A DNA stretch of 64,000 nt from Bilabrum cf. latius (lineage: Eukaryota): NCBI GenBank assembly GCA_965178125.1, contig OZ237739.1:558001-622000 (forward strand). The letters run 5' to 3'. Under the pieces are notes generated by a model. The model made no database searches. It had not been told where the DNA came from and saw only the letters and a program-made list of their open reading frames with translations. Every line of letters starts with the position of its first letter. The stretch's first letter is position 1. Of the stretch, positions 1 through 37,644 are shown one piece after another. A program made the translations under genes and the position numbers.

Positions 1-3000
1 CTGAACTAGGTAGGCGAGCTAGCAGACGACATAACGCCAGACATGAATGCGATTCGGGTCAAGCTCGCATTGGCCCTGCGATTCGGAAGCGCCAAGATGC
101 CGTTTGGGACAGGTGGGGCCTACGGGAGTTATATGTCGGCGCACGGGCACGTCAGAGCGTCTTGCCGCCTCAGCCGCATCGAGCATTAGGCCGTGTGCGA
201 CATGCTTGACAACAAGGACATGTCAGAGAAGTGGCGAGCCCTCAGGTACGGTGACTCCATCCGGGCCACGTACTCCACCAATGGGGCTTCTGAGGGAAAT
301 TTCGGCTGGTATGGCACGATAGCAGAGGGGGGTCTTCACACCGCTGACTACATGTCATAGGCCCAAATACCGACAGAGACAAAATCTGCAAGTGGCTACG
401 TGTCTCTAACGTGGCCCGAGGACGGAAATCGCAACTGGTGCTTCAGTACGTATGGCTACGAGCCAATCGGGGATCTGAGCTCCAGTGCGAAAAAGTCAGT
501 CGATAAGATCAACAGCTTGCTTCCGCTGGCATGGAACTAGCACACGCCCTACCTCATCGAGCTTGCGTTGGGGAAGGCGCGCATTCGCCTTGTCGAAGGA
601 GGGGAAGAATGCGGCCGGCGATTCGCCCAAGTGCTCACGCGCTGGATGCAAGCGAAGCTGTTAGGTTGGAAACCGTACACGTTCTCCGGAAAACAGATGG
701 TGCCCTACTATATTGGTGCAATTGCCAGCGTGATTGATGCTGACGGTTCCCCTGCCACGGAGGGATCTAGCGGTGGCTGGCCGGTTCCTACTACGGAAAT
801 GCTAGCCAAGATCCAAACGTCATCGACTCAGACTTGGGTGAGGAGCTGGTTTCAAGCGCTGAAGGAATGCCCTACCTCTTCAAATCCGAGATTTGACAAA
901 TCGAAGTGGGCTGGCAAAGAAAATGAGATCCCTTGGGGCCACTTTCCCCCGATCCGGCTTGGCCTTGGCACGGGAGCGGATGACGGCACGGCGAACCCGC
1001 CGCAGGACATCACGTCGGACCTTCTGCCACCGGATCCGCCGGGCTGCTTCGACACGTGTCCAGATAGAGCCCTGGTTCTCCGCAAGTTTGACCACTCGGG
1101 TATAGCCACAGCCAGCGGTGCCGCCTCGGGATCGGGGAAGGGCCACGGGAGGCGGGGCTCTGTGAGCGGTGGCGGCGTGGGAATGGACGTGAGCGTGAGC
1201 AAGCTCGACCTGGCCCAATTCGCCACCATGCCGCTGGGTCTCCTGGCAGAGGAGCACACCTTGGTTCTGTCTGCTGCCCAGTCACAAGTGCGTGTGCCGT
1301 CTGGCAGTTTACCGTTCGACAAGACAACCGGACGTCCCATCGAGTCGTCTTTCGTTGCCGACGCCATGCTCAAGCGACTGGAGGACTCTTGTGCCACTTA
1401 CAAGGAGATTGTGGCTGGCCGGACTTCGGATGCGATGGCCTGCTTGGTGGTAGATGCCAACACGGACAAGCAGAGGCACCCGAAGCCAGAGGAGCTGTCT
1501 GCCATAGCGGGTCCGGCTATTGCTTCGCTTCAGCGGTTGCTGCAGCAGCTCGTCAAGCAGCGCCGCGAAGATCTCAAAGACGTCCGCAAAGGGTTTGCGT
1601 CTGTTTTGGCTGTGCTGAACAGGATTGAAGAAGTCGACACGAGCGATGACGCGCCGGCCGCCGCTGCATCTGGTGCGGGCAGCAGCGACCGACCGCCGCT
1701 GGTCGTAAAGACTAGCTTGGAGAGGCATGCCTTCCAGCGCACGTATGTGTGGGACGAGCTGTTGCTTGGCACGCTCCTAAGCTCAAGACCTGAATAGGAC
1801 TTGTTCAATCAGAACCCATGCATGTCGGCAGAACGAGCGAGAGCAGCCGTCGAGTGCGCGCATGCCTTGGCGCTCAAGGCCAACCGCGTGTCGCAGGCCA
1901 ACCGGTGCATTGGGCTAGCACAGCGACTGGCAGGAATGCTTGGGAAGATTCAAAGCTAGTTCAGCAATGCTGGTGCCCACTTTGGATCAGATGCTGTTTC
2001 TCCAGAGCAGATGGAGGCTCTTCGGTATGCACAAGAGGACCTCGCAGGATCGCTCCGCGGAGTCCGACCGTACGCCTCCATCTTCCCGAACGTCCCCATC
2101 GATTATCACAAGCTGGCAGAAGGCGCTGCGGATGCTCGTGAAGTGCAAGAAATATCCATGGATTCGCGGTTCCTGATGCTCGAGCTCATCAACGGCTGGC
2201 TGCTGCGTGGCGTACAGGTGGATGTGGTGGGTCGATTTTGCGAGGAGGCGTGCGTGCCCCTCTACGGACTTCCACCTTCCATGCAGTTCGGGCCCAACAC
2301 AGGACTCCCAGCGGATCAAATGTTTGCCAACAAGCCGGGATTTACGGGCTCGTCGTCCGAATCCAAGGGTGGCGAAGAAGAGAGCAAGGTGGAGCCGCCA
2401 GTGCCGGTTGACGATGACGGGGTGCCGGACCTCGCAGCTCTCGAGAAATACATCTCCTCGCTGGACCCATCTGGCTCCGGGGTCCAATCCCGAGTTCGGT
2501 CACTTGCTATGGGTGCCGGCAAGACGGCTTGCATCAGCGTTCTGCTCATTCTTGCAATGGCAGATGGGAAGCGCGTTGCCACGATCATGGCCCCCCCTGC
2601 CCTGCTCGCTCAGACCCAGGACCTAATGTGGGCCGCATTCGCCCGTATTATGCCAAAGCGGGTGGTGACTTTTAATTTCACACGGAGCTCCGCAGACAAT
2701 CCCAGCGAGCTGGCCGCCTTGCGACGAAAGCTAGAAGACACGGCAGAGCAGCGAGGTCTGGTGCTAACCTCACCAGGTGCAGTCAAGTCGATGCAGTTGC
2801 TCTTTGTGGAGCAGGCCGGCAAGGCGTTGGGCACAGACGGCAAGGGCTCTATCCGCTTGCTCTCGCAGGAAAGCCGCAAGCAGGCCATGGAGGCTGCCAA
2901 AGAGCTGGCCCAGATCACTGACATGTTTGGAAGGTCTCAGGGGGGTCGCCTGGTGATGGACGAGGTGGACATGATCCTAAGCCCGCTCAAGTCGGAGCTG

Positions 3001-6000
3001 CTGTATCCCGCTGGCAACACTGTAATGCTGTAGCCCAGGCCATATCGCTGGACATTCGTGGTGGATTTGCTGGAAACGATCACTACTGCTGCATTGCTCG
3101 AGGGCGCCGGCGACTCGAGGCGGTGCGCCCTGATAGCGGTGGACTCCGAGTCGGCTGGATCAGGAGCAGGCGAATCCAAGGGAGGAGACGAAGGCGGCGA
3201 CAAGGCTAGCTTGGCTGACGTGCAGAGCGGCCGGGGGCCCATGGGGCCGTTCCGCCGCGCGATCAGGCAGGGACTGGACCAGCAGATGCTGCAATCATCT
3301 CCTCACCTAGTGCTTTTGAATAAGGGCTTCTACCACCAGGTGCTTCGACCTGCCGCTGCCGAGTGGTCGGTGTGGTGGCTCATGAGCTCCAACGTGCTGC
3401 AGGCTAAGCAGAACGAAGAGCAGTCGAAAGCCACGGATTCGCCCGTCTCGGGCAAGGACCTCGAGTTGATCTTGCAGGCCGATCCAAAGACCACGGAGAA
3501 ACAGGCCAAGGCGTGCCTGCGCAAAGTGGCAGCCACCATCGGTCCGAAGAGCCAAGCTGCTCTCCGAATCGTGCTGGACTGGCTCAACAGCCTGCTGGCG
3601 CACGTGCTGGGCAAGGTCAACCGGGTTACGTACGGCATCCTGGGGCCGGGTGACGTGCAGCGCCTCCAGGCCATGGGCGGCGATGGCCTCGGCCGAGAGC
3701 GCCTGCTGACAGCTGTGCCTTTTGTTGGCAAGGATGTCCCCTCTGAGATGTCTTCCTTCGCCCAGCCCGACTGCCTCATCGGGATCACGACGAGCGCGTA
3801 CCTGTATGAGGGGCTCATGCCGAGGCACGTGAAGCGACTGGTGCAGGTCCAGCGTTTCAAGATGGGCCGAGAGTCGGGACCGCACCGCACCCGACCGTCG
3901 AGGATCGAGTTTCAAGGCTGGGTGGAGGACGCGATGCGGGTGTGGCGGGTGCGCTTCGGGGATGCCGCGGATGCCATCGCCCGGGCCAGGCAGGCCGCAG
4001 CCCGAAGCGGTGCTTCGTCTGCGTCCTTCATTCCCACGGCCGAGCAGCTGGACCTTTCTGAAGATGCATACAATGAGGCTGCTGCAGGACCCCCCATGGT
4101 TCCGCCGCTGGAGTTCTTGCAGACTACCGACGCGCCCCAGATGGCGCAGGTGTTCCGGCTGTTCCGGCTCTTTGGTCCCATGGTCCGCAGCTGGATGCTG
4201 ATGTACGTGTTTCCCACCGTGACGGACCACTAGGAGGCCAAGTTTTCCTCTTCTGGCGTGGACCTAGGGTCCGACTGCCTCTTTGGTGCCAGGTACGGCT
4301 TCTCGGGAACGCCCTCTGCCCTCGCTCCCCTGGACCTGGGCGAGTGCGACTTCGAGCCGGGTTCGGAGGGAAGGTTCCTCGACGTGCTGACGGACCCGCA
4401 AGTGGTGTGGGACTCCAGCGATGAGCTGATTCCCGGCCGCGAGTGGACCGTGCCAGGCCTGCTCAAGTCGATCGCCAACACCTCCCCGCCCTTCCATGCC
4501 CTCATCGACGCGGGCGCACTAATCACGGGCATGTCCAATCGCCAGGCAGCGGCGTACATGCTTCGCGTGGGCCTCAAGACGCTGCAGGGGTGCGTGTTCC
4601 TGGACGAAGACAACCAAAAGATGATTCTTGTGCGTGGCAAGTCAGAGGCCTTGCCGTTAGCCGAAGCCGGCATTCCTAAACATAAGCGTTTTACGATCTA
4701 TGACCAGAGCCACACGACGGGCATGGACATCAAGCAGGCTCCCAACGCTCGCGCCGTGCTCACGCTGGGCAAGGACTGCACATTTAGGGATGCTGCGCAG
4801 GCGGCCTGGCGCATGCGCGGTCTGGCGAAGGGGCAGACGCTCCGGCTTTGCGTGGTACCGGAGGTGCAAGGCCTTGTGAAGCAGGCTGTGGGCGCGGAGG
4901 CATTCGAAAAGGATCCGAGGATCCGATCGGTGGTGGCGTGGCTGGTTCGCAACAGCATCGAGCACGAGAGCTTGCAGTTCCAGCAGCTGTGCAGGCAGGA
5001 CCTTGCCAACGTCTGGAGGCGGGCCGCATTTGATGACCTGATGAGCATCTTTGGCATTGCGGGTCGGCAGTACGCCGAGAAAGGCTTGGTCCAGGATCTG
5101 CGAACCGTGCAGGAGCGAGTGAGCGTGTTCCGAGAGCCTGTCGACTTCACGCCAAAACTGGACCTCGAGGATGACCCGAGCGCTTCCGTCGGGGCTGCGG
5201 CTTCTTAGGGGGTCAGCAAGGATCCCGCGGAGAGCGCTCCGCTGGCAGGACTGGCGCGGTGGGCACGGGACACCATCCCGCAGTACATTCGTGGAGAGGC
5301 TGCCGAGAAGCGGCTGCTTGCCGTCCTGGAAAGAAACTCAATCGGAGCTGGTGTAGGAGGCAAGAAGAAGACGCAGCACCTGGACCAGGAGCAAGAACAA
5401 GAGCAAGAGGTGCTCCAGGAGGCCGAGCGGGAGCAGGACTAGGAAAAGGAGCTGGAGTACGTCGCCTGGTTCAAGCGCCCGGACATTGACGTGCGCAAGC
5501 CCAGCCCGTGGTCTATCGCTAGCCTAGAGAGTGCAAGCCGCAAGGTACAGAACTTTGCCGACAGCGGCGATGCGGTGAAGGCGCAGTCTGCTTTGCTCGG
5601 CGCTCTGGGGCAGGCAGCGTTTCACGCCTCTGAGTGGAAGCCGGACGATGACACGCCCATGCTATAGGCGCTGCGGCCGGGCCTGTGCCTTTCAAAATGG
5701 TTTACTCTGCAGGACGCGCAGAACCTGCCGGAGTACAAGGTGCAGTTCGCGCAGGTTGGCATGACCTTCAACGCCCTCGAGCCCGACCCACGAGGGGCAT
5801 CGGCTATGGCCGTGCAGGCTGGCGGTGGGGCCGCGGCAGCGGCGGGGTACAGGCCGGGAGGCGGTGCCATCGTGCCCGCTCTGTCTGGAGACTCGCAGCG
5901 CCGCATGGCTGGTGCTACTCCCATGGTCATCCTGTCGCTGGCCGAGGCAGAGGCGGTTCGTCGGGCGCTCCATGCGGCTAGTAGGGAGAGCGACGGCGGT

Positions 6001-8313: not shown

Positions 8314-11300
8314 ATGCGGAAAGCCTTTGGTGTATACGCTGTGCTTGCAGCGGTTGCTGCTGCCCATGAAAGGATTGCGGTGCTGAGCTCAGAGCTGCTG
8401 GAAAGCGAGTCGGCGCGCGGAAGCAAATCTGTGTCACACACTTGCATTCACGACGAGATCATGAAAAAAGCTACAGAAAAACGGGTATTGGCAGGTTTGC
8501 CGGCCGAACCAGCACCACGAGGCCTTCTCAACCCAAGCATTCACGAGCCGCACGCGCGGCATTTGACGTCGAGCGGGAGCTGGCGCCAAATGAGGATCAA
8601 GATCGACTACCAGAGCATGAGTGGGCTCACTGGGTCGGATTTGACATATTTCAAGGATACAATCATCGAACCTACGGTGGAAACCGTCAAGTCAATGCTG
8701 CAAGTACGACAGCGTCCCCAGTCAGCTGGAGGTGACAGCAAGCTCTTCCTCGGCTACCCTTGCTCCGGATACTACACTAGCTCTGCGAATGCCGGCAAGT
8801 GCAGATAGCTTGATACTACTAGAATATGTGGAACGGACGACATGGTCCTCGATGCTGAATACTTTGGAGCCAGTACGTACTACACAAGCTGCAACACTGC
8901 CGGGTAGTGCACGGAGCAGACAACGACTGCTGGCGATGGAGCGGCAGACGCAGATTTCGTTTTGATCGTGTCGGCACAGCAAGTTAGCAATTGCAACTCT
9001 GGTGCAGCTGCGTATGCATCTACCTGCCTCAGGGATGACCTGGATAGGCCTGTCGCCGGACACTTCAACATGTGTCCGAACAGCCTGAGCACGAACACAA
9101 ACGACCTCGCCAAAATGCGGCAGATTGCACTCCATGAGGTTTTCCACGCCATTTTTTTCTCGTCCTCGAACTTCAAGTACATGCGGAACCCAAGCAGCTT
9201 GGAGCCATACCTGGACAGGGACGAGAGCATCGAGGGTCGCCTGGACGTTACGACGCACTCGACGTCCTGCGACGGCGGAAGGACCCAGAGCAACCCTGCA
9301 TTCCCTTCGGATGTCATCCAATGGTCCGGGGAGCGGGGCCAACCCAGCTGCCCTGACGATGCAACTGCAGCCACGCTCGGGCAGAGCAGCTGCACCCAAC
9401 GCGTGGTGCTACCAAAGGTGCGCGATGCTGCCCGCCACTACTTTGGGTGTGATGACCTCGCTGGACCAGAACTTGAGAACGATGACACCAGCTGCAGCCA
9501 CGTGTCCTCGCATTGGGAAAGGCGCATGTTCTACTCTGACACAATGGCTACCACCATTGGAGCTCACAGCATCACGACGCCGGTAACGCTTGCCTTCTTC
9601 GAGTCGAGTGGCTGGTACAAAGCAAACTATACCTCTGTGTAGAGCATTGAAGCTCCTGGGCGCGACTGGGCAAGGTACGCAGGCTGTGACCTAGCCAGGG
9701 ACGAGAAAGGGCTCAGTGGGTCACCGCTTGTAAGCGTGACGTCTGGCGCTCCTGCCAGCAGCGGGCGCTCCTACTTCTGCACAGAGACTGAAACGTACTC
9801 TGTCTGCTCATTCGATCGCAGAGAGAGGGGCTCTTGCTAGATCAAGTCCGACTACGGTGCGTCTGATTTGCCAAGCTACAGGAGGTATTTCGGGGAATCG
9901 GCAGCACCCTACAAAGCCGGCAGATCGAAGCAACTGGACTTCCTGCCCTATGTGACCGGGAGCGCCTGCTCAGATACTGACAACCACAGGTCGGGCCAGT
10001 ACGATGCAGAGTTTGGAACATTTTACGGTGCCAAGTCGGCCTGTTTCGATGCAACGCTGGTGCTTTCCGACTCGTAGTACAACTTTGGAACGCAAATTCA
10101 GTCAGGCTGCTTCCGGTACGAGTGTGCGGCAGATGCGGCGGAGAGCTACAAGGTGTTTTTCCTCTCTCGAGACGGGGACTCAGAGGTGAACGTTACATGC
10201 ACGGAAGAGGAAGAAATCTCAGTGCCTGGATTCTCAGGCACCTTCGGGTGCGTGGCTCCTCGATTCTTTTGCCCGAAGAGCAACGAGGCTCCGGACGCCA
10301 CCCTGTCAACCACGAGTGTTACGTTCTCGGAGACCACAGCTACTGCTGAACCCCTGTTTCCATCAATCACATTGGATGATTCCGACGACACCACTTTGTC
10401 TGCACTTGTCATGCTCACCGATGCGCAAGTTGGTGATGTGATCCAAAAGGCTAGCGCAGACGACGACATTGAGCTCCACAGCGACGGATTCGGCGCCACG
10501 ATCTCTGCAGTATCAAAATCTGACCTAGCAACGAAGCTACAGAAACTAGGGTACAAATCGACGGTGAGCTACACAGACACGTTAACAAGGTCGATCGAAC
10601 TGGTGGTAACAGATAATGCAGCAAGCCAGCTGGCTGTGCAAGGCAGGCAAGTGAGATCTCTTTCGGCAACCATCACCCCTTCAAACCAAGCGCCTGTCAT
10701 CACGCTGGGCACGGCGCCGTCCGACTTCTATGAGTCCACTGGCACGGCCGTGGCGCTCTTCTCGGGCGTGTCCATCGCGGACGCGGACGACGTGCAGGTG
10801 ACGGCCAGCGTCAGCATCCAGAGCTCGCAGACCGGTGACGCGCTGACCGCCGGGGCTGGCGTGAAGTTGGCAGGAGACGGGCTGAGCGCCACGGTGGCTG
10901 CATCATCGCTGGCCGACATGGCCACGGCGCTGGCCACGATCAAGTTCGCCAACACCGCCGACTACGTGACGCCGCTGACTCGCACTGTGCGGCTGACGGT
11001 GGAAGACCTGGGGTCGCAGGGCCAGCTGAGCAGCAGCAAGCAGGCTAGCAGCGAGGATGTGACCGTGACCATCGTGGCGGACAATGATGCGCCTGGCATC
11101 ACGCTGGGCACGGCGCCGTCCGACTTCGATGAGTCCACTGGCACGGCCGTGGCGCTCTTCTCGGGCGTGTCCATCGAGGACGCGGACGACGTGCAGGTGA
11201 CGGCCAGCGTCAGCATCCAGAGCTCGCAGACCGGTGACGCGCTGACCGCCGGGGCTGGCGTGAAGTTGGCAGGAGACGGGCTGAGCGCCACGGTGGCTGC

Positions 11301-14300
11301 ATCATCGCTGGCCGACATGGCCACGGCGCTGGCCACGATCAAGTTCGCCAACACCGCCGACTACGTGACGCCGCTGACTCGCACTGTGCGGCTGACGGTG
11401 GAAGACCTGGGGTCGCAGGGCCAGCTGAGCAGCAGCAAGCAGGCTAGCAGCGAGAATGTGACCGTGACCATCGTGGCGAACAATGATGCGCCTGGCATCA
11501 CGCTGGGCACGGCGCCGTCCGACTTCGATGAGTCCACTGGCACGGCCGTGGCGCTCTTCTCGGGCGTGTCCATCGAGGACGCGGACGACGTGCAGGTGAC
11601 GGCCAGCGTCAGCATCCAGAGCTCGCAGACCGGTGACGCGCTGACCGCCGGGGCTGGCGTGAAGTTGGCAGGAGACGGGCTGAGCGCCACGGTGGCTGCA
11701 TCATCGCTGGCCGACATGGCCACGGCGCTGGCCACGATCAAGTTCGCCAACACCGCCAACTACGTGACGCCGCTGACTCGCACTGTGCGGCTGACGGTGG
11801 AAGACCTGGGGTCGCAGGGCCAGCTGAGCAGCAGCAAGCAGGCTAGCAGCGAGAATGTGACCGTGACCATCGTGGCGGACAATGATGCGCTTGGCATCAC
11901 GCTGGGCACGGCGCCGTCCGACTTCGATGAGTCCGCTGGCACGGCCGTGGCGCTCTTCTCGGGCGTGTCCATCGAGGACGCGGACGACGTGCAGGTGACG
12001 GCCAGCGTCAGCATCCAGAGCTCGCAGACCGGTGACGCGCTGACCGCCGGGGCTGGCGTGAAGTTGGCAGAGGACGGGCTGAGCGCCACGGTGGCTGCAT
12101 CATCGCTGGCCGACATGGCCACGGCGCTGGCCACGATCAAGTTCGCCAACACCGCCGACTACGTGACGCCGCTGACTCGCACTGTGCGGCTGACGGTGGA
12201 AGACCTGGGGTCGCAGGGCCAGCTGAGCAGCAGCAAGCAGGCTAGCAGCGAGAATGTGACCGTGACCATCGTGGCGAACAATGATGCGCCTGGCATCACG
12301 CTGGGCACGGCGCCGTCCGACTTCTATGAGTCCACTGGCACGGCCGTGGCGCTCTTCTCGGGCGTGTCCATCGAGGACGCGGACGACGTGCAGGTGACGG
12401 CCAGCGTCAGCATCCAGAGCTCGCAGACCGGTGACGCGCTGACCGCCGGGGCTGGCGTGAAGTTGGCAGGAGACGGGCTGAGCGCCACGGTGGCTGCATC
12501 ATCGCTGGCCGACATGGCCACGGCGCTGGCCACGATCAAGTTCGCCAACACCGCCGACTACGTGACGCCGCTGACTCGCACTGTGCGGCTGACGGTGGAA
12601 GACCTGGGGTCGCAGGGCCAGCTGAGCAGCAGCAAGCAGGCTAGCAGCGAGAATGTGACCGTGACCATCGTGGCGGACAATGATGCGCCTGGCATCACGC
12701 TGGGCACGGCGCCGTCCGACTTCTATGAGTCCACTGGCACGGCCGTGGCGCTCTTCTCGGGCGTGTCCATCGAGGACGCGGACGACGTGCAGGTGACGGC
12801 CAGCGTCAGCATCCAGAGCTCGCAGACCGGTGACGTGCTGACCGCCGGGGCTGGCGTGAAGTTGGCAGGAGACGGGCTGAGCGCCACGGTGGCTGCATCA
12901 TCGCTGGCCGACATGGCCACGGCGCTGGCCACGATCAAGTTCGCCAACACCGCCGACTACGTGACGCCGCTGACTCGCACTGTGCGGCTGACGGTGGAAG
13001 ACCTGGGGTCGCAGGGCCAGCTGAGCAGCAGCAAGCAGGCTAGCAGCGAGAATGTGACCGTGACCATCGTGGCGGACAATGATGCGCCTGCCATCAGGCT
13101 GGGCACGGCGCCGTCCGACTTCGATGAGTCCGCTGGCACGGCCGTGGCGCTCTTCTCGGGCGTGTCCATCGAGGACGCGGACGACGTGCAGGTGACGGCC
13201 AGCGTCAGCATCCAGAGCTCGCAGACCGGTGACGCGCTGACCGCCGGGGCTGGCGTGAAGTTGGCAGAGGACGGGCTGAGCGCCACGGTGGCTGCATCAT
13301 CGCTGGCCGACATGGCCACGGCGCTGGCCACGATCAAGTTCGCCAACACCGCCGACTACGTGACGCCGCTGACTCGCACTGTGCGGCTGACGGTGGAAGA
13401 CCTGGGGTCGCAGGGCCAGCTGAGCAGCAGCAAGCAGGCTAGCAGCGAGAATGTGACCGTGACCATCGTGGCGGACAATGATGCGCCTGGCATCACGCTG
13501 GGCACGGCGCCGTCCGACTTCGATGAGTCCGCTGGCACGGCCGTGGCGCTCTTCTCGGGCGTGTCCATCGAGGACGCGGACGACGTGCAGGTGACGGCCA
13601 GCGTCAGCATCCAGAGCTCGCAGACCGGTGACGCGCTGACCGCCGGGGCTGGCGTGAAGTTGGCAGGAGACGGGCTGAGCGCCACGGTGGCTGCATCATC
13701 GCTGGCCGACATGGCCACGGCGCTGGCCACGATCAAGTTCGCCAACACCGCCGACTACGTGACGCCGCTGACTCGCACTGTGCGGCTGACGGTGGAAGAC
13801 CTGGGGTCGCAGGGCCAGCTGAGCAGCAGCAAGCAGGCTAGCAGCGAGAATGTGACCGTGACCATCGTGGCGGACAATGATGCGCCTGGCATCACGCTGG
13901 GCACGGCGCCGTCCGACTTCGATGAGTCCGCTGGCACGGCCGTGGCGCTCTTCTCGGGCGTGTCCATCGAGGACGCGGACGACGTGCAGGTGACGGCCAG
14001 CGTCAGCATCCAGAGCTCGCAGACCGGTGACGCGCTGACCGCCGGGGCTGGCGTGAAGTTGGCAGGAGACGGGCTGAGCGCCACGGTGGCTGCATCATCG
14101 CTGGCCGACATGGCCACGGCGCTGGCCACGATCAAGTTCGCCAACACCGCCGACTACGTGACGCCGCTGACTCGCACTGTGCGGCTGACGGTGGAAGACC
14201 TGGGGTCGCAGGGCCAGCTGAGCAGCAGCAAGCAGGCTAGCAGCGAGAATGTGACCGTGACCATCGTGGCGGACAATGATGCGCCTGCCATCAGGCTGGG

Positions 14301-17300
14301 CACGGCGCCGTCCGACTTCGATGAGTCCGCTGGCACGGCCGTGGCGCTCTTCTCGGGCGTGTCCATCGAGGACGCGGACGACGTGCAGGTGACGGCCAGC
14401 GTCAGCATCCAGAGCTCGCAGACCGGTGACGCGCTGACCGCCGGGGCTGGCGTGAAGTTGGCAGAGGACGGGCTGAGCGCCACGGTGGCTGCATCATCGC
14501 TGGCCGACATGGCCACGGCGCTGGCCACGATCAAGTTCGCCAACACCGCCGACTACGTGACGCCGCTGACTCGCACTGTGCGGCTGACGGTGGAAGACCT
14601 GGGGTCGCAGGGCCAGCTGAGCAGCAGCAAGCAGGCTAGCAGCGAGAATGTGACCGTGACCATCGTGGCGGACAATGATGCGCCTGGCATCACGCTGGGC
14701 ACGGCGCCGTCCGACTTCGATGAGTCCGCTGGCACGGCCGTGGCGCTCTTCTCGGGCGTGTCCATCGAGGACGCGGACGACGTGCAGGTGACGGCCAGCG
14801 TCAGCATCCAGAGCTCGCAGACCGGTGACGCGCTGACCGCCGGGGCTGGCGTGAAGTTGGCAGGAGACGGGCTGAGCGCCACGGTGGCTGCATCATCGCT
14901 GGCCGACATGGCCACGGCGCTGGCCACGATCAAGTTCGCCAACACCGCCGACTACGTGACGCCGCTGACTCGCACTGTGCGGCTGACGGTGGAAGACCTG
15001 GGGTCGCAGGGCCAGCTGAGCAGCAGCAAGCAGGCTAGCAGCGAGAATGTGACCGTGACCATCGTGGCGGACAATGATGCGCCTGGCATCACGCTGGGCA
15101 CGGCGCCGTCCGACTTCGATGAGTCCGCTGGCACGGCCGTGGCGCTCTTCTCGGGCGTGTCCATCGAGGACGCGGACGACGTGCAGGTGACGGCCAGCGT
15201 CAGCATCCAGAGCTCGCAGACCGGTGACGCGCTGACCGCCGGGGCTGGCGTGGCGTTGGCAGGAGACGGGCTGAGCGCCACGGTGGCTGCATCATCGCTG
15301 GCCGACATGGCCACGGCGCTGGCCACGATCAAGTTCGCCAACACCGCCAACTACGTGACGCCGCTGACTCGCACTGTGCGGCTGACGGTGGAAGACCTGG
15401 GGTCGCAGGGCCAGCTGAGCAGCAGCAAGCAGGCTAGCAGCGAGAATGTGACCGTGACCATCGTGGCGGACAATGATGCGCCTGGCATCACGCTGGGCAC
15501 GGCGCCGTCCGACTTCGATGAGTCCGCTGGCACGGCCGTGGCGCTCTTCTCGGGCGTGTCCATCGAGGACGCGGACGACGTGCAGGTGACGGCCAGCGTC
15601 AGCATCCAGAGCTCGCAGACCGGTGACGCGCTGACCGCCGGGGCTGGCGTGAAGTTGGCAGGAGACGGGCTGAGCGCCACGGTGGCTGCATCATCGCTGG
15701 CCGACATGGCCACGGCGCTGGCCACGATCAAGTTCGCCAACACCGCCGACTACGTGACGCCGCTGACTCGCACTGTGCGGCTGACGGTGGAAGACCTGGG
15801 GTCGCAGGGCCAGCTGAGCAGCAGCAAGCAGGCTAGCAGCGAGAATGTGACCGTGACCATCGTGGCGGACAATGATGCGCCTGGCATCACGCTGGGCACG
15901 GCGCCGTCCGACTTCGATGAGTCCGCTGGCACGGCCGTGGCGCTCTTCTCGGGCGTGTCCATCGAGGACGCGGACGACGTGCAGGTGACGGCCAGCGTCA
16001 GCATCCAGAGCTCGCAGACCGGTGACGCGCTGACCGCCGGGGCTGGCGTGAAGTTGGCAGGAGACGGGCTGAGCGCCACGGTGGCTGCATCATCGCTGGC
16101 CGACATGGCCACGGCGCTGGCCACGATCAAGTTCGCCAACACCGCCGACTACGTGACGCCGCTGACTCGCACTGTGCGGCTGACGGTGGAAGACCTGGGG
16201 TCGCAGGGCCAGCTGAGCAGCAGCAAGCAGGCTAGCAGCAAGGATGTGACCGTGACCATCGTGGCGGACAATGATGCGCCTGGCATCACGCTGGACACGG
16301 CGCCGTCCGACTTCTATGAGTCCACTGGCACGGCCGTGGCGCTCTTCTCGGGCGTGTCCATCGAGGACGCGGACGACGTGCAGGTGACGGCCAGCGTCAG
16401 CATCCAGAGCTCGCAGACCGGTGACGCGCTGACCGCCGGGGCTGGCGTGAAGTTGGCAGGAGACGGGCTGAGCGCCACGGTGGCTGCATCATCGCTGGCC
16501 GACATGGCCACGGCGCTGGCCACGATCAAGTTCGCCAACACCGCCAACTACGTGACGCCGCTGACTCGCACTGTGCGGCTGACGGTGGAAGACCTGGGGT
16601 CGCAGGGCCAGCTGAGCAGCAGCAAGCAGGCTAGCAGCGAGAATGTGACCGTGACCATCGTGGCGGACAATGATGCGCCTGCCATCAGGCTGGGCACGGC
16701 GCCGTCCGACTTCTATGAGTCCACTGGCACGGCCGTGGCGCTCTTCTCGGGCGTGTCCATCGAGGACGCGGACGACGTGCAGGTGACGGCCAGCGTCAGC
16801 ATCCAGAGCTCGCAGACCGGTGACGCGCTGACCGCCGGGGCTGGCGTGAAGTTGGCAGAGGACGGGCTGAGCGCCACGGTGGCTGCATCATCGCTGGCCG
16901 ACATGGCCACGGCGCTGGCCACGATCAAGTTTTCGAACTCCGAGGAGCGTCCGTCGTTGGCTGGTCGCACTGTGCGGCTGACGGTGGAAGACCTGGGGTC
17001 GCAGGGCTAGTTGGAACCATAGAAGCTCAGTGATTCTGAATCGGTCACTGTTTCGGTGATTCCGGATAATGATGCTCCTGTAGTTTTTTTGCAGGCGCTG
17101 CTTATTGTATTTCAAGAGGCCCCTGGGTTGCCGGAGCCACTGTTTAGTGGCATTTCCCTGTCTGATGTGGATGACTCTGAGTTTTCTGCCACCGTTACCA
17201 TGACAAATGGGCAGACTGGTGACTCAATTGGAATTGCTTAGACGGACGCGGACGTAACGGTGGCTGCAGACGAGCAGTCAATCATTATCAGTAAAGTGTC

Positions 17301-20300
17301 TACATCCGGCATGATGCAAAAGCTGCGCCTGCTACACTTTTCGAACGACCAGCAGCACCCCGACCTGGCAAACCGCACCGTGACGCTTGTCATTAAGGAT
17401 GATGCGAGCACTGGAGACGTGGCAGACTCAGAGAAGTAGACGTCCGAGTCTATTGTCTTGGTCACAGTAAATCCTGACAACGATGCTCCTGTACTCAGTG
17501 GCGCGAACTCCAGCTTAGAATACATAGAGAACTCTGATGCGATCCAGTTGCTGCCAGACTTTGCCGTCAGCGATGTTGACGATACTTCTGCAAGTGCTGT
17601 CGTTGAGATCGTTGGTTCTGATGACGATGGTGACGTTCTTGTTGTCGATCCAGCAGACTCGGCAGTATTGGTGACGCCTGCAAACACGGCGACTGGAGAC
17701 CTGCTTTCCGCTGTCATATCGGCTTGTGACCACGAAGAACTTGCTAGCAAGCTGGGCAAAATATACTTCAACTCGACTTCACATAAGCCAGCCGTGCGGG
17801 CTAGGACGGTCAAGGTGACCGTCACTGATGAGAAGAGCTCTGGTGAGACGTCGACTGCTGCAACTGCGGTCTTTCAAAGGCTCGTGGACGTCACTCCAGT
17901 GAACGACGGTCCAGTTCTAGAGCTATCCGGGAACATTGACTAGATCTTCGTCGAGGATGAAAGCCCGGTGACTGTGCTAGAGCCGAGTGGATCCGTCAGC
18001 ATTGCGGACGCGGACGACTCCACCATGTCCAGGCTGGTGGTGTAGATCACCAGCGGTTGCGAGGTTGGCACTGATATTCTATCTCTCCCTGGAGACACTG
18101 AGTTCTTGTCGACGTACAAGGCTGGGCTTGTCAATATCTCTGCAGGTGATGCAGACAGCTGCAGACTGGAGGTTGTGCCGAGCGGTGCTGACACCGCACC
18201 GATCAGCGATTGGGTTGGCGTGATCCGCCAGGTTTCATTTTCGAGCACAAATAGCAGCCACATTCAGCCTGATGTGCGCTAGGTCACTTTCTCCATTTTT
18301 GATTCGCATTCGGATGGTGATGGCGGGTTGTCTAGCAATGACACGCTGTATTCTTTGGATGACTCGTCGCGAGTGTCTGTCGAGAACGTCGATGATCCGC
18401 CTGTGCTTGTCATTTCACAGGCTTGGCTTGACAGCGGGAGCACGAACTTGGCTATTGATGAGAATCCAGCTGATGGCAGCCACTTGCAGTCCACTAACGG
18501 GACTGCCGACGTGATCATGACCTTTAGAATCGTTGACGTGGACTGGGACGGAAGCTCCCCCGCGGCCCTCAGTATCGTTGACAACGGCTCGGATAATCCA
18601 TCCAGCGATGTGTTTGCAGTCAAGAGCATGAACCATTCAAAGCGCTACGTTCCGTACAATGCAACGGGACACCCTGTGGAAGACGGGTTGCGGTACTACT
18701 CCGAGGAGTTCCAGCTTCAGGTGAAGACGTCAGTCGACTCTTCGACCGTTCAGGATCCGACATCTGAGCGTACGTACATGATGTACCTTGACTACGAGAA
18801 TCTCAACCGAGCGGACCCTACGTCATCGTGGAAGTCTTCATTTATCGAGGACGACAGGGCCTTTCCACTGCCACTGCGTGTCGGCAAGGACGCGAGCTCG
18901 AGCAGTTACACCCTCTTCTACCAGCTGCGCAACGTCGAGGAGTCGCCAGTGTTCTGGTTCCCGTCAGTTGGCTCTACACTTGGGACAGACGATGGCACTG
19001 TCACTGACAGCGTCGGCATGGCAGCCACTCGAACCGAGTACATCGTTCCAATCAACGGGTCGTTTTCTCCCGGAATCGATGGGTCGCTCATTTCAACAGA
19101 GACCGGTCGGCTAGCTGCGAGCATAGGCGAGTACGACCAGAACCCGGATCCAAACCGTACCGAGATTGTTCGACATGCCAAGATTGATCTCATCTACGGG
19201 AAATACTTCGACTTCTCGATCCGTCCGAGCTCCCTCGCCTACGACCCCGAGGGCGACGCAGTTCGTATTTAGCAACTTAGGCTGGTGGGGTACCGCGAGT
19301 AGTCCAATGAAAATTTCACTTCAGTCAATCTTGTGATTCCTCCAAATGGCACTGTAGGTCCAGAGGTGCACAATGGCTCAACACTATTCTCTGTGGCCTC
19401 TCCGTTGTCCTGGAGCTGCGGTGATGACGGCACTGCATGCTAGCTTTCCGGACAGCCAGAGTATGGTCCTGGCTTCAACCTGCTGCAAGAAGAAGGACGC
19501 AGGCAGTCTCCCGTACCAATGACGCTTCGGTTTGAATTGGATGCTGTAGACGACTCCGACGATGCAGGCGTGACGACTGGTGCATTTGAGGTAGACATCG
19601 AGGTTGCCGGCTGCGTAGACCTACGGGCCTCCTTCGTGAGTTGCAACGGCAACGCCTCCTCGCCCCAGGGCTGTGACAACCAACTGTTGCGTTCTGGCAG
19701 CGGTGACAACACGGCCGATTTCAGCTTTGACCCCATGGATGCGTCGACGTACCGCAGCAATCAGGCCCCGTACAATCCTCTGGGAAACTACAACGAGCTC
19801 GCCTCAGTCCCGCTGCCGGAGTGTGCCTTCCCGAATGCGAAACTGGCTGTGAACCAAGGCCCTTTGGTTGTGGGAGGCTCGACAGTAGTCGAATCACCGA
19901 CTGCTGCTGCTGCTTTGCTTGTAGACAGCTAGGGTGCAGCGCTGACCGGCACCGCGCTGCGCAAGAAATAGGAGCTTCTGCGCGGCACCACTTTCCTAGA
20001 TGTGAACACGGACTTGCTCGGCGAAGGTGAGGTATTTTCTCTCGAGCAATTCGATGCAGAGGGGGACGTGGTGATCCCGGAAGGTCTCCTAGGAATCGCC
20101 TCCGCTGCGGTCCGTGTCAACCCTGCCGGGCTTGTTATCGGCACGGACGCAAACGGCGTGCCAGGATTCAAGACGACGGTGTACCCTGGCTTCTTTGACA
20201 CGACTTAGTATTTCTGCACCCCGCTGCATGCTAGTCTGAAGGATGCCACTCGGCCCTCGCTTGGATACCAGCAGCCGCAGCCGTGCGAGCACATCGAAAT

Positions 20301-21756
20301 TGCGGATGGAGGCGCCTGCGTGTGCTTCCACAGCAGCAACTCCATTATCATTCCGGCACTGAGCGCTCTACCACAGGCAGACTTCCTCCCGGAGCGGTTT
20401 TACAAGAGCGGTGGTGGTTGTCCTGAGCATTGCTCTGGCCACGGCACTTGCCGGGCGCACGGAAAATGTGCGTGCTTTGCTGGATGGGGCGGGTATTCGT
20501 GCGACCAGCGGCTATGTCCCTTTGCCGAGGCATGGAGCGATGGAGACATCCCTAGAGTCGGACGCAGACCCTTGGAATGCGGTGGAATGGGTCAGTGCGA
20601 TCGCAGCAGTGGGACTTGCGTCTGCCTGGCAGGATTTGAAGGGCCAGCGTGCGAGCGCATGAGCTGCCCAGGCGGGTGTTCCGGCCACGGAATGTGCCGG
20701 TACATCAACGAGCTGCCAGCAGTCATGGGCTACTCTGAGTGGGACGCGAGCCGAATCTAGGCGTGTGTCTGTGACGGTGGATACTTTGGATCCGACTGCT
20801 CTCTTCGCAGATGCCCGTTCGGGGACGACCCTCAGACGCGCTGCGAAGAGGGCATTACTCATCAGCAGGTACTCACCATTGCAGCACCGCGTGCTGCTTC
20901 AGCCGGATCGGGTCTACAGGTGCGATAGGGTGCGGGGAGTATCGGGCTCACGTTCAAGTCAGCTGAGGGCACCGAGTACAAGCTGCCGCGCATCGACGAC
21001 GTCTATCCGTAGACTGCCACAGCCTGGAACCGTGCAGCCGTGGAGGAGCGAATCACCGCGGCTTTTCGGGCGCTGCCAGACTAGGCAGTAGACGACATCA
21101 CGGTCACCGCCCCTGCATCCTTCGATCCAAGCACTCAAACCGGTCTGGAGATCACACTGGACTTCACCGGTAGCACCACTCCAAGCGATCAGTTCCTCAT
21201 CCAATGCTCCACAGGGTGCGAGTTGGCGGGTTGCAGACCGAGACACCTGCAGTTGCGCCTGCAGGCGGTTCCGAGTACTCTTGACATTGTGATGGCCGCA
21301 AACACGATGGTGCAGCTGCCGTCCAGCGCCCCAACGTCTGCAGTTGGGGCGCTCTACACGTTCACCTACACGGCAAACTCGGACCTTGCGTCGGGTTATT
21401 CCGTTGTGGCTACGCAGGCTTGGGTGGATGCCAGCGGTACAACCGTTGGTGGAGCAGGGACAACCGTCCTAGAGGCACCGGTCCCTCTGGGCGAGTCTCG
21501 CCCGATCGTTGTCGGGTCGACAGGATTCGCAGTTACGTTCGACTCGAGCCAGATTGCCGGAAATTCACCAGGTACAGCCCGATCTTTTGAGCTGTATCCC
21601 GTTGGGTGCAGCGCGCGGTTGGAGCGGCGCGCGAGCGCAACCACTGAGGCAGTTGAGTGTGGAAACCGGGGCACGTGCGACAGGGCCTCGGGACTGTGTG
21701 ATTGCTTCCAGGGGTACGCAGGGTCTGCCTGCTCGGAACCAGTGCAGTCGACTTGA
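8314..21756 (+). CDS. Giant secreted leishmanolysin-like (peptidase M8/GP63) metalloprotease with ~20 Ig/cadherin-like repeats and a C-terminal EGF-rich mastigoneme-protein-like region (~4480 aa, TAG=Gln)
   Basis: One frame from ATG 8314 to TGA 21754-21756 with ~22 TAGs and no TAA/TGA. Signal peptide MRKAFGVYAVLAAVAAA; propeptide HTCIHD; ADFVLIV; zinc motif HEVFH; ELEND..SHWERR; LAFFESSGWY; NDAP..DADD repeats; EGF units CSGHGTC; WDASRI(Q)ACVCDGGYFGSDCSLRRCPFGDDP; terminal ECGNRGTCDRASGLCDCFQGYAGSAC. Confidence 0.9.
10690..17010 (+). repeat. Intragenic tandem array of 16 near-identical 399-bp (133-aa) units
   Basis: The unit marker (atcacgctgggcacggcgccgtccgacttc or a variant) recurs every 399 bp from ~10699 to ~16684. 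Units differ by only a few substitutions. Diverged copies of the same domain flank the array. Confidence 0.97.
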
Positions 21757-21841
21757 AAATATAATATAGTATATATTGTTCTTGACTATCCGGATCAACT
21801 ATGTGCAATTGACTAACTATTGAATACCCGTACAAATCTTT

Positions 21842-24718
21842 TTAACGCAACAAGGCAGCAGCCTTACGGCTCACACGGACCTACCCAGTGTTCTTGCGGT
21901 CCGCCACCTCTCCCCACTTCCCTGCGCGAGCAGCATCTGCCGAAGCCCTACCGCTCAGCATGGAGCTACCCTAGCCTGGGGCACCAGGCTTCGTCCCGGA
22001 AATTACTGGAAGCCCGCCAGTCTGGGTAGCAGCTGCCCGCCCTAGACCAGCAGCGGGCTCGGTTTGCTTCAAGCCAGCCGACCGTCGCACCTTCCGCATC
22101 TCTGGCGCTGCTTCCGCGGCTGCAATAGCTGCTATGGCCGGATCGAGCCGGATCGATCCGCCCGCTCCTCCTTGCCTCAGCCCGTGGTCGACGGCGCCGC
22201 TCGGCAGCATCCCGCCCTCGTAAATACCGGCCTCGCCCATGCCCGAGGATGCGCTTTGCAGGCTGAGAGGGGCCTGGACACCACCTGACTGGAGGCCCAC
22301 GTCGCCCGCAGGGCTGGATCCACCCCCAAGAGGAGCGGCGGCTGGGTCAAACCGCGAAGTCGCAGGGTACAGCGGCGCAGGTGCGTGCTGCCCGGACGCG
22401 CTGGAGGCTGCCCGCTTCGAGACACGCTCCCTCGGGTCTCGAGGCCGGCGGCCCAGCGCAGCCTCGCGCCGCTACGGTGACATGCGTCGGCCTGCCGCAG
22501 CGATGGGTGCAGGACCAGGAGAGTTCCGCGAACGAAGTCGAGCAGGCGAGCGTGCAATTGCTCTCTGTGGGGGTCCAGACCTGCGCTGGTTACCTCGATC
22601 AAGCAGTGCCGGTGTGGCGGGAGATCCCGCGGGTGCACGCGGCGCACCGAATCCGCCCACTTCATCGCCGAGCTGCGACCTCTCAAGCAGCTCCCTTCGA
22701 GCGTCTTCGACGGATCGGCCTCCCTCCAGCAAATCGTCGGCGCTGACTCTCCCCGCGCCTACTCCACTCGCACTGCCGGCGCCAGCGCCCCCCCCCACCT
22801 CTTCTAGCCTGGGCGTGCCCTCCCTACTACCCTCTCTGCCGTGTCGGGCTGCTCGCGCAGCGGCCGATTCCACCATCCCCCCTTGACCACTGGCCCCGCC
22901 CTCTTCGCCCGCGCCGGCAGCCAGCTGCATGTATTCCGACACGGTCACGCGCCCGCGGCCTGGAGAAGGGGCAGGAGGACCAGCCGCCGCCAGCGAGCCT
23001 TCCCGCGCTCGCACGCCGGGAGACAGCGCCGAAGTGTGCAGCATCAGCGGCTGCTGCTGCTCCTCCACTCCGTAGAAGCGCCCGGTCTGCTTCACGTGCG
23101 CATCCAAATCGAGGTCACCCGCTCGTGCATGGGCCTCCGACTCCGACTAGGTGCCGCCATACGCGCCGTGCTCCTCGTCCTCGCCCTTCGACTCCCTGAC
23201 CTGCACATCAGCCAGTGCCCTAGTGGCGTCCAGCCTTGCCGCACCCAGGGCCTCGTGCACGGGGTCCGTGGCGTGAAAGAGGTCCTTGGGGGCGGGTCGC
23301 GCCACGGGGGCAGGCCTGTCCAGCGCGTCCTCCCAGGAGGCCTGCTCGCTTACTCTCCCGCTGGGAGTGCCAGTGCCAAAGCTCGCCTGTCCGGTCGTCG
23401 GTCCTGCCCCGGCAGCTGCCGCAGCCTAGTCGGCGAGAGGTGGCAAGCGCTGCAGCTGCTGCTGCTGCTGCTGCCCCACAGACCCCTGCCGCAGACCTCC
23501 CGTCGCATCTGCCTCGTAATGTGACGAGTGAGACTGATCCTCCTCGTCCCCGCGCAGTCTCGCCCCCACCGGCGCGCCGTGTACATCGAGCTCTGGACCC
23601 TGCTTCAGCGGACGCATGGCGACCAGCCCGCTCCTGGCGTCGACCATAACGTTGCGGCCGCGCGCTGCCCTCTGCAGCGCCAGCTCCACCTTTGCTTCCT
23701 CCCTAGCCGCCCTGTCCAGTTCCTCCGCTTTTTCCCTCTCCTCTCTCGCGCTCTGCCTCAGCGAGCTCAAACCCTCCCGCCTGACAACGTCGAGGTGGGA
23801 GTCCCGGGGACCGGGGCGGCGGCTCGGCTGTTCCCTGCTGACCGGCCGATCCGCGAGACCTAGCTGCTGCTGCAGTGCCCGGTTGTCTGCGTCCTCGCGG
23901 GCTGCCGCAAGGGCCTCGGGGTCGGATCGCTGCCCCCTGCGGTGGTGCCTCCTGCCGCCGCCCGCCGCCGGGGAGGAGCCCGGCGGCGAGCCAAGGGAAC
24001 CATTCGTTGCAGCAGCGCCTGATGTTCGTCCACCGCCGGCTGCTGTTCCACCAGTTATCCCGGAGGCGCCAGATCGAGTCCGGCTGCGGCTGCGCCGCAC
24101 ACCCGACCCGCTCATCCTGCTGAGGCGGACGTTGGGGCGTCCAGTCCCGTCGTAGCTCCCCTCAATTACCTAACGCTGCGCTTCTTTTGCAGCGGCCTGG
24201 GCCACGTGTCTCCTGTGCACCTGGGGCATGGCGGCTCTGGCCCATGAATCCACCGCGCAGGGCACTGGCTCGTCCTCCGCGATCCACGAACCAGTCGTGC
24301 TCGGGGCAGTGAGCCTCGGGGCCAGCACGCTGCGGTTTCCAGCTCTACCGCTAGATTCGCTGCGACAAGGCAGCGCGTGTTCTGGCACAGGGCCCGAGAC
24401 TCCCCGAATGATGCAAGGCCTTGGGCCTCGGGCCTGCCCAGCGACGCTCCGGCCGTCCAGATAGGAGGCATCTGAGGAGCCCGGTTCCCCATCGTGGGTC
24501 AGCATTTGGCGCTCAACTGCAGCAAATAGCGACTCGATCGATCGCGCGGACGCGAACGGGATTTCTCGCCTTTTGAGGTAGTTGTCGTACAGCACATCGG
24601 CTGCTTTCCTGACCACGGTGTCCACGGCATCTTGCACCGCTTCTTCGGATGCTCGGCTCTCCAATAGCCAGTCCATTGGCGACATAGGCGCAACATCTCC
24701 ACCTGTAGAGTCCTCCAT
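21842..24718 (-). CDS. C2orf81/DUF4639-like N-terminal domain protein with long low-complexity tail (~958 aa, TAG=Gln)
   Basis: Track ORFs 24170-24718, 23426-24115, 22472-23107 and 21971-22300 share one frame joined by TAGs and end at TAA 21842-21844. An in-frame TGA lies upstream of ATG 24718. Motifs DVLYDNYL..IPF and WIAEDEPVPCAVDSWAR resemble C2orf81. Confidence 0.7.
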
Positions 24719-32700: not shown

Positions 32701-32876
32701 GCGGCGAGGGGGCGCTGGCAGCATACTTGCCTGGGAACGGCGGGCTGCTGCACACGGTGGCGCTACTGGCGAATCAGGGTGGGAGTGGGGGCTTGCCGTG
32801 GGGCGGGGTGGGCGAGGGCTTCCCGCCGTACGTGTCAACTGCACGTGCGAAGGTGACATCTGCTGGCCGAGAATGA
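29762..32876 (+). CDS. Secreted six-hairpin (alpha/alpha)6 glycoside hydrolase-like protein, copy 1; introns 30062-30144 and 31894-32018
   Basis: Signal peptide; VDRKAVIHRH..VAVGNG..TGS(Q); NPVRYDLG(Q); ELERRVVLS(Q)Y; WNGKSHLEMRWFH..WGR; ARY(Q)GY..RWPK; LIWQQPH; PTFELAY; WGWD; YLPGNGGLL. 8 coding TAGs; ends TGA. Confidence 0.8.
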
Positions 32877-35800: not shown

Positions 35801-36390
35801 GGGTCACGGGCCCACTGCCATGCGCTGCATCCACCACCAGCAGCACCAACGGTCCCAGCGGGCCATGTGGCATTGCACCTGACGCGGTAGGACGTGGAGT
35901 TGTCGATAGTGCGCTGCAGCAGGACCGTGGCGAATCCACCAGTGGATTCGTTCGCCACCACGCGAGTTTCGTGGCCCTTGGGAGTCCAGTCCCGCATGGT
36001 CGGCTCGCTACTGGGGTATGCGAAAGCCAGGCGAGGCACCAGCACCGGCACCGCCGCAGGGGCGGCATCTCCGGCGGGGGCGGGCCCCTGCACCTCCATG
36101 CGATGCGACACGATGTCGCCGTCTGGGTGCACCGCCGTCCAGGCCTCCACCATGAACCCGCCGCCTGCGACCTGGCCGTCGGAGCCAAGCACCCGCCCGT
36201 CATCGCTTCCCGCGGATGCATTGTACAGCGAGTGCTGCACCCCGCTCCACAGGTCCAGCGAAGACCGGCAGCCAACGATATCCTGTGACTGGATCGGGGC
36301 TGTGGGCGAGTCGGGGGAGGAAGAGGAACCCGAGAAGGAGCCATCCTAGCCGACGTGAACGACAGCAACAGCAAACTAGCCCAAGTCGTA
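30238..36390. repeat. Large inverted duplication: arms ~30238-32833 and ~33804-36390, spacer ~970 bp
   Basis: The arms are near-identical reverse complements, including the second intron. The ORF track shows mirrored translations. Confidence 0.95.
33012..33070 (+). pseudogene. 5'-truncated tRNA-Asn(GTT)
   Basis: gtcggtagagc-g-tgcga-ctGTTaa-tcgca-aagtc-gtggg-ttcgatc-cccac-cggaaccg followed by a T8 run. The 5' acceptor strand and 5' D-stem strand (ggttccgtagctca) are absent. Confidence 0.8.
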
Positions 36391-37571: not shown

Positions 37572-37644
37572 CGGTTCCGGTGGGTCTCGATCCCACGACC
37601 TCGCGATTAACAGTCGCACGCTCTTCCAGTTGAGCTACGGAACC
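37572..37644 (-). tRNA. trnN: tRNA-Asn(GTT)
   Basis: Full cloverleaf: acceptor GGTTCCG/CGGAACC, D-stem GCTC/GAGC, anticodon arm TGCGA-CTGTTAA-TCGCG, T-arm GTGGG-ATCGAGA-CCCAC. A downstream T6 Pol III terminator is present. Confidence 0.93.

Follow-up and report, generated by a model that had tools for sequence, protein, structure and literature searches.

Flagellar hairs define the stramenopiles, and GP63, a leishmanolysin (peptidase family M8), is roughly 600 amino acids (aa) long and often anchored by glycosylphosphatidylinositol (GPI). The subunits of tubular mastigonemes (Ocm1-6 of PDB 9ufe; Mas1-3 of Phytophthora and Ectocarpus) are 209-748 aa long, and cadherin and protocadherin ectodomains consist of beta-sandwich domains in tandem, with acidic D-x-N-D-x-P linkers between them. 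In a 64,000-nucleotide (nt) stretch of Bilabrum cf. latius DNA (contig OZ237739.1 of assembly GCA_965178125.1, forward-strand positions 558,001 to 622,000; hereafter the window), one gene of 4480 codons appears to join a predicted M8 protease head, 20 cadherin-like repeats and a mastigoneme-family tail (Table 1). The individual parts are of known kinds, and the combination was found nowhere else in the searches made. To judge from the sequence, we consider it somewhat probable that the product is a protease zymogen on a rod stiffened by calcium, with the tail as its anchor in an extracellular assembly.

With the mastigoneme subunits the protein shares a cysteine framework and a terminal EGF domain over its last ~450 residues, but it is 4480 aa long and its tail contains an insert of ~130 aa. 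The M8 domain, the HExxH motif and the downstream histidine are common to GP63 and stramenopile M08 proteases (P. infestans PITG_08774; P0268, described below), whereas in the present protein, which has no membrane anchor, the protease is followed by a cadherin-like rod of 2700 aa and then by an end of the mastigoneme family; passages of PMC8035641 describe GP63 as having a single domain. The rod likewise has acidic linkers between tandem domains, which are modelled as beta-sandwiches; it differs from cadherins in its 133-aa unit with one helix, in matching no Pfam cadherin model and in having no transmembrane or cytoplasmic part. A group of unnamed secreted giants (P0006, P0011, P0017, P0018 and P0007) likewise has a long extracellular body with the same module at the very end, but neither an M8 head (48 scanned) nor a 20-unit array, and several of them have in common another N-terminal region with a W-H motif.

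On the + strand the frame is the sole open reading frame (ORF) here under translation table 15, in which TAG is read as glutamine; the stop-to-stop frame starts at 8224 and its first ATG is at 8314. The standard code fragments it, and the largest remaining piece (10153..17010, 2285 aa) lies entirely within the repeats. A single ~4480-aa frame visible only with TAG as glutamine had been proposed in the first-pass annotation of the window, and it was recovered intact; the description 'intronless' holds in that the frame needs no intron, and goes no further than that. G+C at third codon positions (GC3) equalled or exceeded that at second positions (GC2) in 28 of 30 segments of 150 codons, both exceptions falling within the Cys/Gly-rich tail.

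In-frame TAG codons were present in all 11 long ORFs of the window (3-22 each), in-frame TAA or TGA in none, and nine of these ORFs stop with TGA and two with TAA. Within the 4480-codon gene, TAG accounts for 22 of 188 glutamine codons. Five of these positions are covered by fragments 81-97% identical to the protein, which have Q at 443, 509 and 4149, D at 198 and R at 3965; in the column of residue 4149, Q was the most frequent residue (100 of 260 aligned relatives). When the cells of distant relatives were pooled, Q occupied 19% in TAG columns versus 21% in CAG columns. Several public short 'proteins' (P0002, P0003, P0161, P0266, P0267 and P0270) are ~60-97% identical to pieces of the 4480-aa protein, and three public fragments stop one residue short of TAG codons 165, 588 and 4149, the pattern expected where the genes of a relative that shares this code have been called with the standard one. 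The TAG in the second nucleotide-binding domain of the neighbouring ABC transporter fell in a variable column (A, E or S in solved homologues) and was uninformative, and no tRNA with anticodon CUA was found in tRNA scans of the 64-kb window. On codon usage and alignments, TAG is a sense codon window-wide, read as glutamine, and TGA and TAA remain stops, which is the pattern of table 15. No report of a nuclear code with TAG as glutamine in a stramenopile was found among literature titles and abstracts; the stramenopile affiliation is itself taken from the mastigoneme-family protein only.

The table 15 code is also used by phages. A phage or bacterial origin of the window was rejected, the neighbouring genes being eukaryotic (ABCC-type transporter, CLU/TPR, MYND finger, DUF3638/DUF3645) and a nearby GT-AG intron plausible. 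The ABC transporter gene (46994-52174) ends in ...GCT TAG TGA, with a TAG immediately 5' of the stop.

Table 1. Features of the 4480-codon gene and other mapped elements, in window coordinates
Feature	Position	Strand	Residues	Remarks
Whole coding frame	8314..21756	+		4480 codons then TGA; 22 TAG taken as Gln
Signal-peptide-like N-terminus	8314..8364	+	1-17	MRKAFGVYAVLAAVAAA, then HE; read from sequence
Probable propeptide	8365..8583	+	18-90	HTCIHD at 42-47
Leishmanolysin (peptidase M8) domain, predicted	8584..10299	+	~91-662	Pfam PF01457
Stalk, 20 cadherin-like repeats	10300..18408	+	663-3365	net charge -231
Recently expanded stalk core	10702..16686	+	797-2791	15 units of 399 bp; no TAG; GC3 0.86-0.89
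Conserved spacer	18409..20370	+	3366-4019	654 aa; 10 Cys
Mastigoneme-family tail module	20371..21753	+	4020-4480	
Tail, EGF cluster			4036-4177	
Tail, non-EGF part			4178-4431	
Tail, subfamily-specific insert			~4312-4441	
Tail, terminal EGF			4449-4473	
ORFs of one inverted copy	29995-32088 and 31941-32876			
ORFs of the other inverted copy	34549-36516 and 33785-34696			
tRNA-Asn (GTT)	37570-37645	-		

The C-terminus, noted at first pass as EGF-rich, matched EGF_Teneurin and EGF_2 in Pfam, in agreement with that description. When the whole protein was compared with all PDB sequences, eight chains matched, six of them from 9ufe and two from reelin. The tail aligned with OCM5 of 9ufe (368 aa) at E 5e-37, with residues 4033-4311 on 16-312 and 4442-4474 on 330-362, and the 366-aa 'Tubular mastigoneme protein' of the same entry matched it at E 4.4e-35; the alignment to mastigoneme subunits takes in the non-EGF middle and the terminal EGF. 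Reelin was the best non-mastigoneme PDB match of the tail (E 1.3e-3), and a profile of the tail's closest clade gave 7.9e-50 for OCM5 versus 4.4e-4 for teneurin-3. A generic tenascin/teneurin EGF tail was rejected on these scores, and a grouping with generic tenascin/EGF proteins, named at first pass as an outcome that would refute its reading, did not occur. The cysteine framework was almost invariant in the alignment of the tail subfamily. Among 1.84 billion representative proteins, 4128 relatives of the tail were found at E<=1e-3, of which 372 reached E<=1e-30. In a second protein search, five of the 120 matches listed carried an organism name, and all five were from stramenopiles (a pelagophyte, Phytophthora, Thraustotheca, Aphanomyces and Ditylum).

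Tail relatives were sorted by alignment pattern into classes A, B and C, the remainder being left unclassified. Class A (48 proteins) has the full ~450-aa module in a single stretch, class B (33 proteins) has single modules of 340-446 aa without tail residues ~300-420, and class C (54 proteins) has double modules of ~680 aa. True shaft-type proteins are included in class B (P0222 at 1.2e-108 and P0090 at 1.9e-61 against 9ufe), and one class C member was closest to the 748-aa and 723-aa chains. FastTree, run on 102 rows with 48/48 of class A, 25/33 of class B, 14/54 of class C and the tail, placed the tail within a clade of 46 class A rows (Shimodaira-Hasegawa-like support 100), with P0009, P0007, P0013 and P0056 as its sisters; two rows labelled class A had been wrongly assigned and fell with class C. 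IQ-TREE, run on 42 rows under a site-mixture model, split class A plus the tail from classes B plus C with a Shimodaira-Hasegawa approximate likelihood ratio (SH-aLRT) of 99. A single clade of the tail and 12 Ocm1/5-like class B rows, a group chosen after the tree had been inspected, was rejected by 51.6 log-likelihood units (approximately unbiased test, p-AU 0.00028). By these trees, the tail is a paralogue and not an orthologue of the shaft subunits and falls in another subfamily, which has an additional ~130-aa insert; true Ocm1-like proteins score 1e-108 against 9ufe, in contrast to the value for the tail given above. The mastigoneme (Ocm1/Sig1) type assigned at first pass was correct as to family, with a match over nearly a whole subunit, and did not extend to orthology with the shaft. 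In most proteins of the tail subfamily the last residues follow the pattern Q-x-(I/V/L)3, as in QVIVI or QTILV.

At the other end of the protein, Peptidase_M8 (PF01457) matched in two stretches (E 9.4e-40, 137.2 bits versus a cut-off of 21 bits), the best of which covers residues 364-659 on profile positions 256-522 of 529. HEVFH occupies residues 274-278 (nt 9133-9147), and H400, within SHWE at 399-402 (nt 9508-9519), follows it at a spacing of 122 residues and is itself followed by RRMFYSDTM. We take HExxH, a far-downstream histidine and a Met turn to be the M8 zinc site, which HEVFH, H400 and RRMFYSDTM fit; the 122-residue spacing is presumably longer than that in GP63. The head thus appears to be an M8-family zinc metalloprotease whose metal site is intact, as the first-pass annotation had it, and is predicted to be active. 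Upstream, HTCIHD resembles what we take to be the M8 cysteine switch and is a candidate for it; its position is occupied by HQCTHD in P0268. This protein, the closest distinct relative of the head (1140 aa, 33% identity over 649 columns), also has the HEVFH and SSHWERR motifs and has, after its M8 protease, a mucin-like S/T/P linker that leads to EGF domains and to a transmembrane helix at the C-terminus, which indicates that stalked M8 proteases exist but with a different stalk and a different anchor. The head matched no PDB sequence at E<=0.01, and its profile, built with four relatives, picked up nothing but low-complexity S/T/P stretches; a search among long proteins (2464-7840 aa) yielded none that has a related head.

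The signal-like N-terminus is kept in P0267, a 91%-identical fragment beginning at residue 1. No other 19-residue stretch in the 4480-aa protein exceeded a Kyte-Doolittle value of 1.6, and the C-terminus (...CSEPVQST) lacks hydrophobic character. The protein is probably secreted without a membrane anchor, consistent with the signal peptide and the missing transmembrane or GPI tail recorded at first pass. The same features would suit a giant protease or adhesin that is freely released, with the tail as a ligand- or substrate-binding EGF module acting in the medium or on prey, host or matrix, which we regard as rather unlikely. Such a mode of action has been proposed for oomycete M08 proteases with an EGF-like domain: sections of PMC8035641 describe Phytophthora infestans M08 proteases in which an EGF-like domain (PF07974) lies at the C-terminus, one of which promoted lesion growth. 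Sections of PMC8163842 place an M8 orthogroup, as a 'digestive enzyme', among the lifestyle-predicting features of heterotrophic stramenopiles. The lack of the usual Q-x-hydrophobic tail ending would fit it as well. However, the tail is a complete ~450-aa module and not a lone EGF, the solved family members are subunits of an extracellular tube, the closest M8 plus EGF protein (P0268) is built otherwise, and a rod of 20 domains would make most sense with one end fixed.

The stalk between the two ends consists of repeats of 133-163 aa. Tandem Repeats Finder reported a 399-bp period (133 aa) with 15.8 copies at 98%, and a self-built hidden Markov model (HMM) found 19 clear copies over residues 663-3199. 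A linker of the D-N-D-A-P-(G/V/A) type closes 19 of the 20 domains and is mutated to DNDALG in the remaining one. The 15 core units (units 2-16) differ from each other at 0-8 of 399 nt (at least 98% DNA identity), whereas unit 17 differs at ~65 nt. Unit 8 is identical to unit 11, and unit 9 to units 12 and 14, a pattern suggestive of a recent duplication of three units; judged by these identities, the array is a recent expansion. The core stands apart from the rest of the gene in GC3, which is 0.55-0.71 elsewhere with the array and its edge excluded, and in having zero TAG codons. An ORF of 2316 aa on the opposite strand (10098-17048, -) was rejected as a gene, since the sense strand has homologues and folds well; its only Pfam match, to PUA, is below threshold and repeated by the array, and the ORF most likely reflects the scarcity of stops in the GC-rich repeats.

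No credible family was found when three repeat units were searched against Pfam and NCBIfam, and no cadherin Pfam model matched at E<=10. A two-unit AlphaFold2 model, based on an alignment of five rows that all came from the 4480-codon gene itself, had a mean predicted local distance difference test (pLDDT) score of 82.3 and showed each unit as a beta-sandwich with one helix. With Foldseek against the PDB, cadherin-superfamily ectodomains made up 39 of the 43 matches listed (best E 1.7e-6, probability 1.0), the other four being bacterial pilins or adhesins. The template modelling scores (TM-scores, TMq) were only 0.20-0.32, which may be expected where a two-domain query differs in domain angle. 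By its modelled fold the repeat appears to resemble cadherins. The first-pass figure of ~20 Ig/cadherin-like repeats agrees with the domain count and with the modelled fold; the 133-aa period is longer than an Ig or classical cadherin domain, and near-identity is confined to 15 units. Conserved E, DxDD and D columns are present in the repeat alignment, and each unit has a net charge of ~-10. DxNDxP with acidic partners is, we assume, the calcium-binding linker motif of cadherins, and by analogy the acidic linkers of the stalk should bind calcium and stiffen the rod. In bacterial and archaeal genomes, a scan turned up 19 loci whose repeats are 26-36% identical to the stalk unit, and two of the four bacterial loci scanned with Pfam reached Cadherin_4 or Big_9 models below their cut-offs.

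The spacer that follows the stalk is kept in the four closest relatives (P0007, P0009, P0013 and P0056); residues 655-1418 of P0007 align to residues 3221-4007 of the 4480-aa protein at E 1.3e-28. No credible Pfam or NCBIfam family was found over residues 2899-4019, no PDB sequence matched the spacer, and hhalign comparison of the spacer with the repeat profile and with the non-EGF part of the tail gave probabilities <=0.2. An AlphaFold2 model of residues 3200-4019, with five relatives aligned, had a mean pLDDT of 39.5 and was too poor for a fold search.

The layout of the protein was then compared with that of its tail-bearing relatives. Of the 48 class A proteins, 41 have no more than 10 residues between the end of the module and the C-terminus. 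Lengths in the tail subfamily span 431-4291 aa, and class A includes 28 proteins of more than 1000 aa, 10 of which are longer than 2000 aa. The complete giants P0006, P0011, P0017, P0018 and P0019 start with signal peptides, and the same repeat type occurs in one or two copies in 16 long tail-bearing relatives (263 proteins searched). The data suggest that a secreted head-stalk-tail design is conserved; with many secreted giants ending in the tail subfamily, the long protein with a tail is not unique, and the protease head alone is. An HMM of the pre-tail region of 14 other giants did not match the 4480-aa protein (E 0.16), and blastp matched the head in none of the 150 best tail matches. The four closest relatives start without a signal peptide and may be cut short at the N-terminus, perhaps at TAG codons, so the absence of M8 from them says nothing about their heads. 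Both the tail-bearing giant subfamily and the combination described here are undescribed as far as the searches made could tell.

Continuity of the parts could be followed in close relatives. The head is covered by the fragments P0267 and P0266 (~90-97% identical), and the end of M8 and repeat 1 lie in the single ORF P0270 (~90% identical, residues 637-771), which indicates that at least one close relative keeps the protease joined to the stalk. Repeat, spacer and tail lie in the single ORF P0007, and spacer and tail in P0003 and P0161. Every domain junction of the 4480-aa protein falls inside a single ORF of some relative. This bears on whether the gene is an artefact of gene modelling or assembly, with two or three genes joined, introns hidden or the repeat array mis-assembled, which we consider highly improbable. 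Fifteen units at least 98% identical over 6 kb are hard to assemble, and the genome probably has introns (a GT-AG intron of ~107-125 nt would join two ORFs at 29995-32876). In addition to the junctions, 4480 codons without TAA or TGA, coding-type GC3 throughout, the lack of an internal signal peptide or stop between the parts, and the same stalk-plus-tail continuity in relatives of 1000-4291 aa argue against an artefact.

The tail is conserved, always terminal and homologous to extracellular-tube subunits and is taken as the anchoring or assembly end. In the anchored reading, this module would dock into, or co-assemble with, an extracellular polymer of its paralogues, perhaps the shaft of the flagellar hairs or some related fibre at the surface. 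The stalk would keep the protease away from the polymer surface, and the rod would be ~90 nm long if the unit measures ~4.5 nm as in cadherins. In OCM3 (9ufe chain CA), a PSGQ-rich low-complexity stretch (35-137) precedes the EGF module (150-307), which indicates that members of the hair-protein family can carry N-terminal appendages. In Ochromonas, according to parts of PMC2108286, the hairs bear lateral filaments in two size classes and end in 1-3 terminal filaments. Together, these filaments and the OCM3 extension make flagellar hairs a fair candidate site, and anchoring at the hairs specifically is a possibility that we put forward tentatively. Assembly into hairs had also been suggested at first pass, and the roles named there for the protease (prey handling, biofilm degradation or antiviral defence) would be conjectural. 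A further step, which we think doubtful, is that the tail-bearing giants are the side or terminal hair filaments themselves, fixed to the shaft by the C-terminal module, with the present protein carrying an active M8 protease at the tip. If true, the hairs of the anterior flagellum would be an enzymatic surface cutting prey, mucus or attached particles as water is drawn past. Among the top matches by title and abstract in the literature on mastigonemes and proteases, no protease on a hair was described.

The anchoring polymer need not be flagellar. The giants may self-assemble into a layer, stalk, scale or adhesive matrix apart from flagella, as structural fibre or coat proteins, with the M8 protease maturing or remodelling that matrix in cis or on neighbouring molecules, which we hold to be unlikely. 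The many secreted giants with heads of no recognised kind, the phylogenetic separation of the tail subfamily from shaft subunits, and the resemblance of the repeat to those of giant bacterial surface proteins (the 19 loci and sub-threshold Cadherin_4 and Big_9 matches above) are consistent with such a coat. Against it, the sole wider-family members of known place are flagellar-hair proteins, according to PDB 9ufe and the relevant parts of 10.64898/2026.09.11.750887 and PMC13109109.

Several results weigh against the anchored display of the protease. With a paralogous tail and an insert of ~130 aa, shaft-type assembly cannot be assumed. The protein, like a 94%-identical fragment, ends in EPVQST without the usual Q-x-(hydrophobic)3, a shortcoming if assembly depends on that ending. 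The TM-scores of the two-domain repeat model are low and Pfam cadherin models are unmatched, and the figure of 15 near-identical units may be an estimate made by the assembly. Peptidase_M8 was absent from all 48 tail-bearing relatives scanned with Pfam (23 + 25), which leaves the protease-on-tail arrangement without an independent second example beyond the ~90-97% identical fragments.

According to a 2024 review (PMC11412368), the functions of the hairs beyond thrust and sensing 'remain enigmatic', and no protein named for the side or terminal hair filaments was found in the literature searched. The unnamed secreted giants with a hair-subunit-like end are candidate components of those filaments or of another, related fibre at the surface, and the 4480-codon gene is the first tail-bearing giant seen here with a recognisable enzyme cargo. 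The gene is visible only with TAG as glutamine and its relatives are public as TAG-cut fragments, which suggests that standard-code annotation is losing such genes.

Elsewhere in the window, an AT-rich gap of 85 nt (21757-21841) separates the stop of the 4480-codon gene from that of the convergent ORF 21842-24718; the genome is compact. An inverted duplication of 2.6 kb with 96.5% identity (30226-32836 and 33801-36402) contains two copies of a gene without a Pfam family; in each copy, a GT-AG intron of ~107-125 nt (e.g., 31912-32018) would join both ORFs. Between the inverted copies, a weak tRNA-like remnant (33010-33070, +) has a truncated D arm and GTT in the anticodon loop. An Ala/Glu/Arg-rich ORF of 1792 aa (38230-43608, +) appeared coiled-coil-like by eye and matched no Pfam family; the DNA around it has a G+C content of 72-76% and a strong AT skew of 0.14-0.34. 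A short-period tandem repeat at 56435-56584 corresponds to a long Gly-Ala run in the CLU/TPR-domain protein (gene 52348-57840, -).

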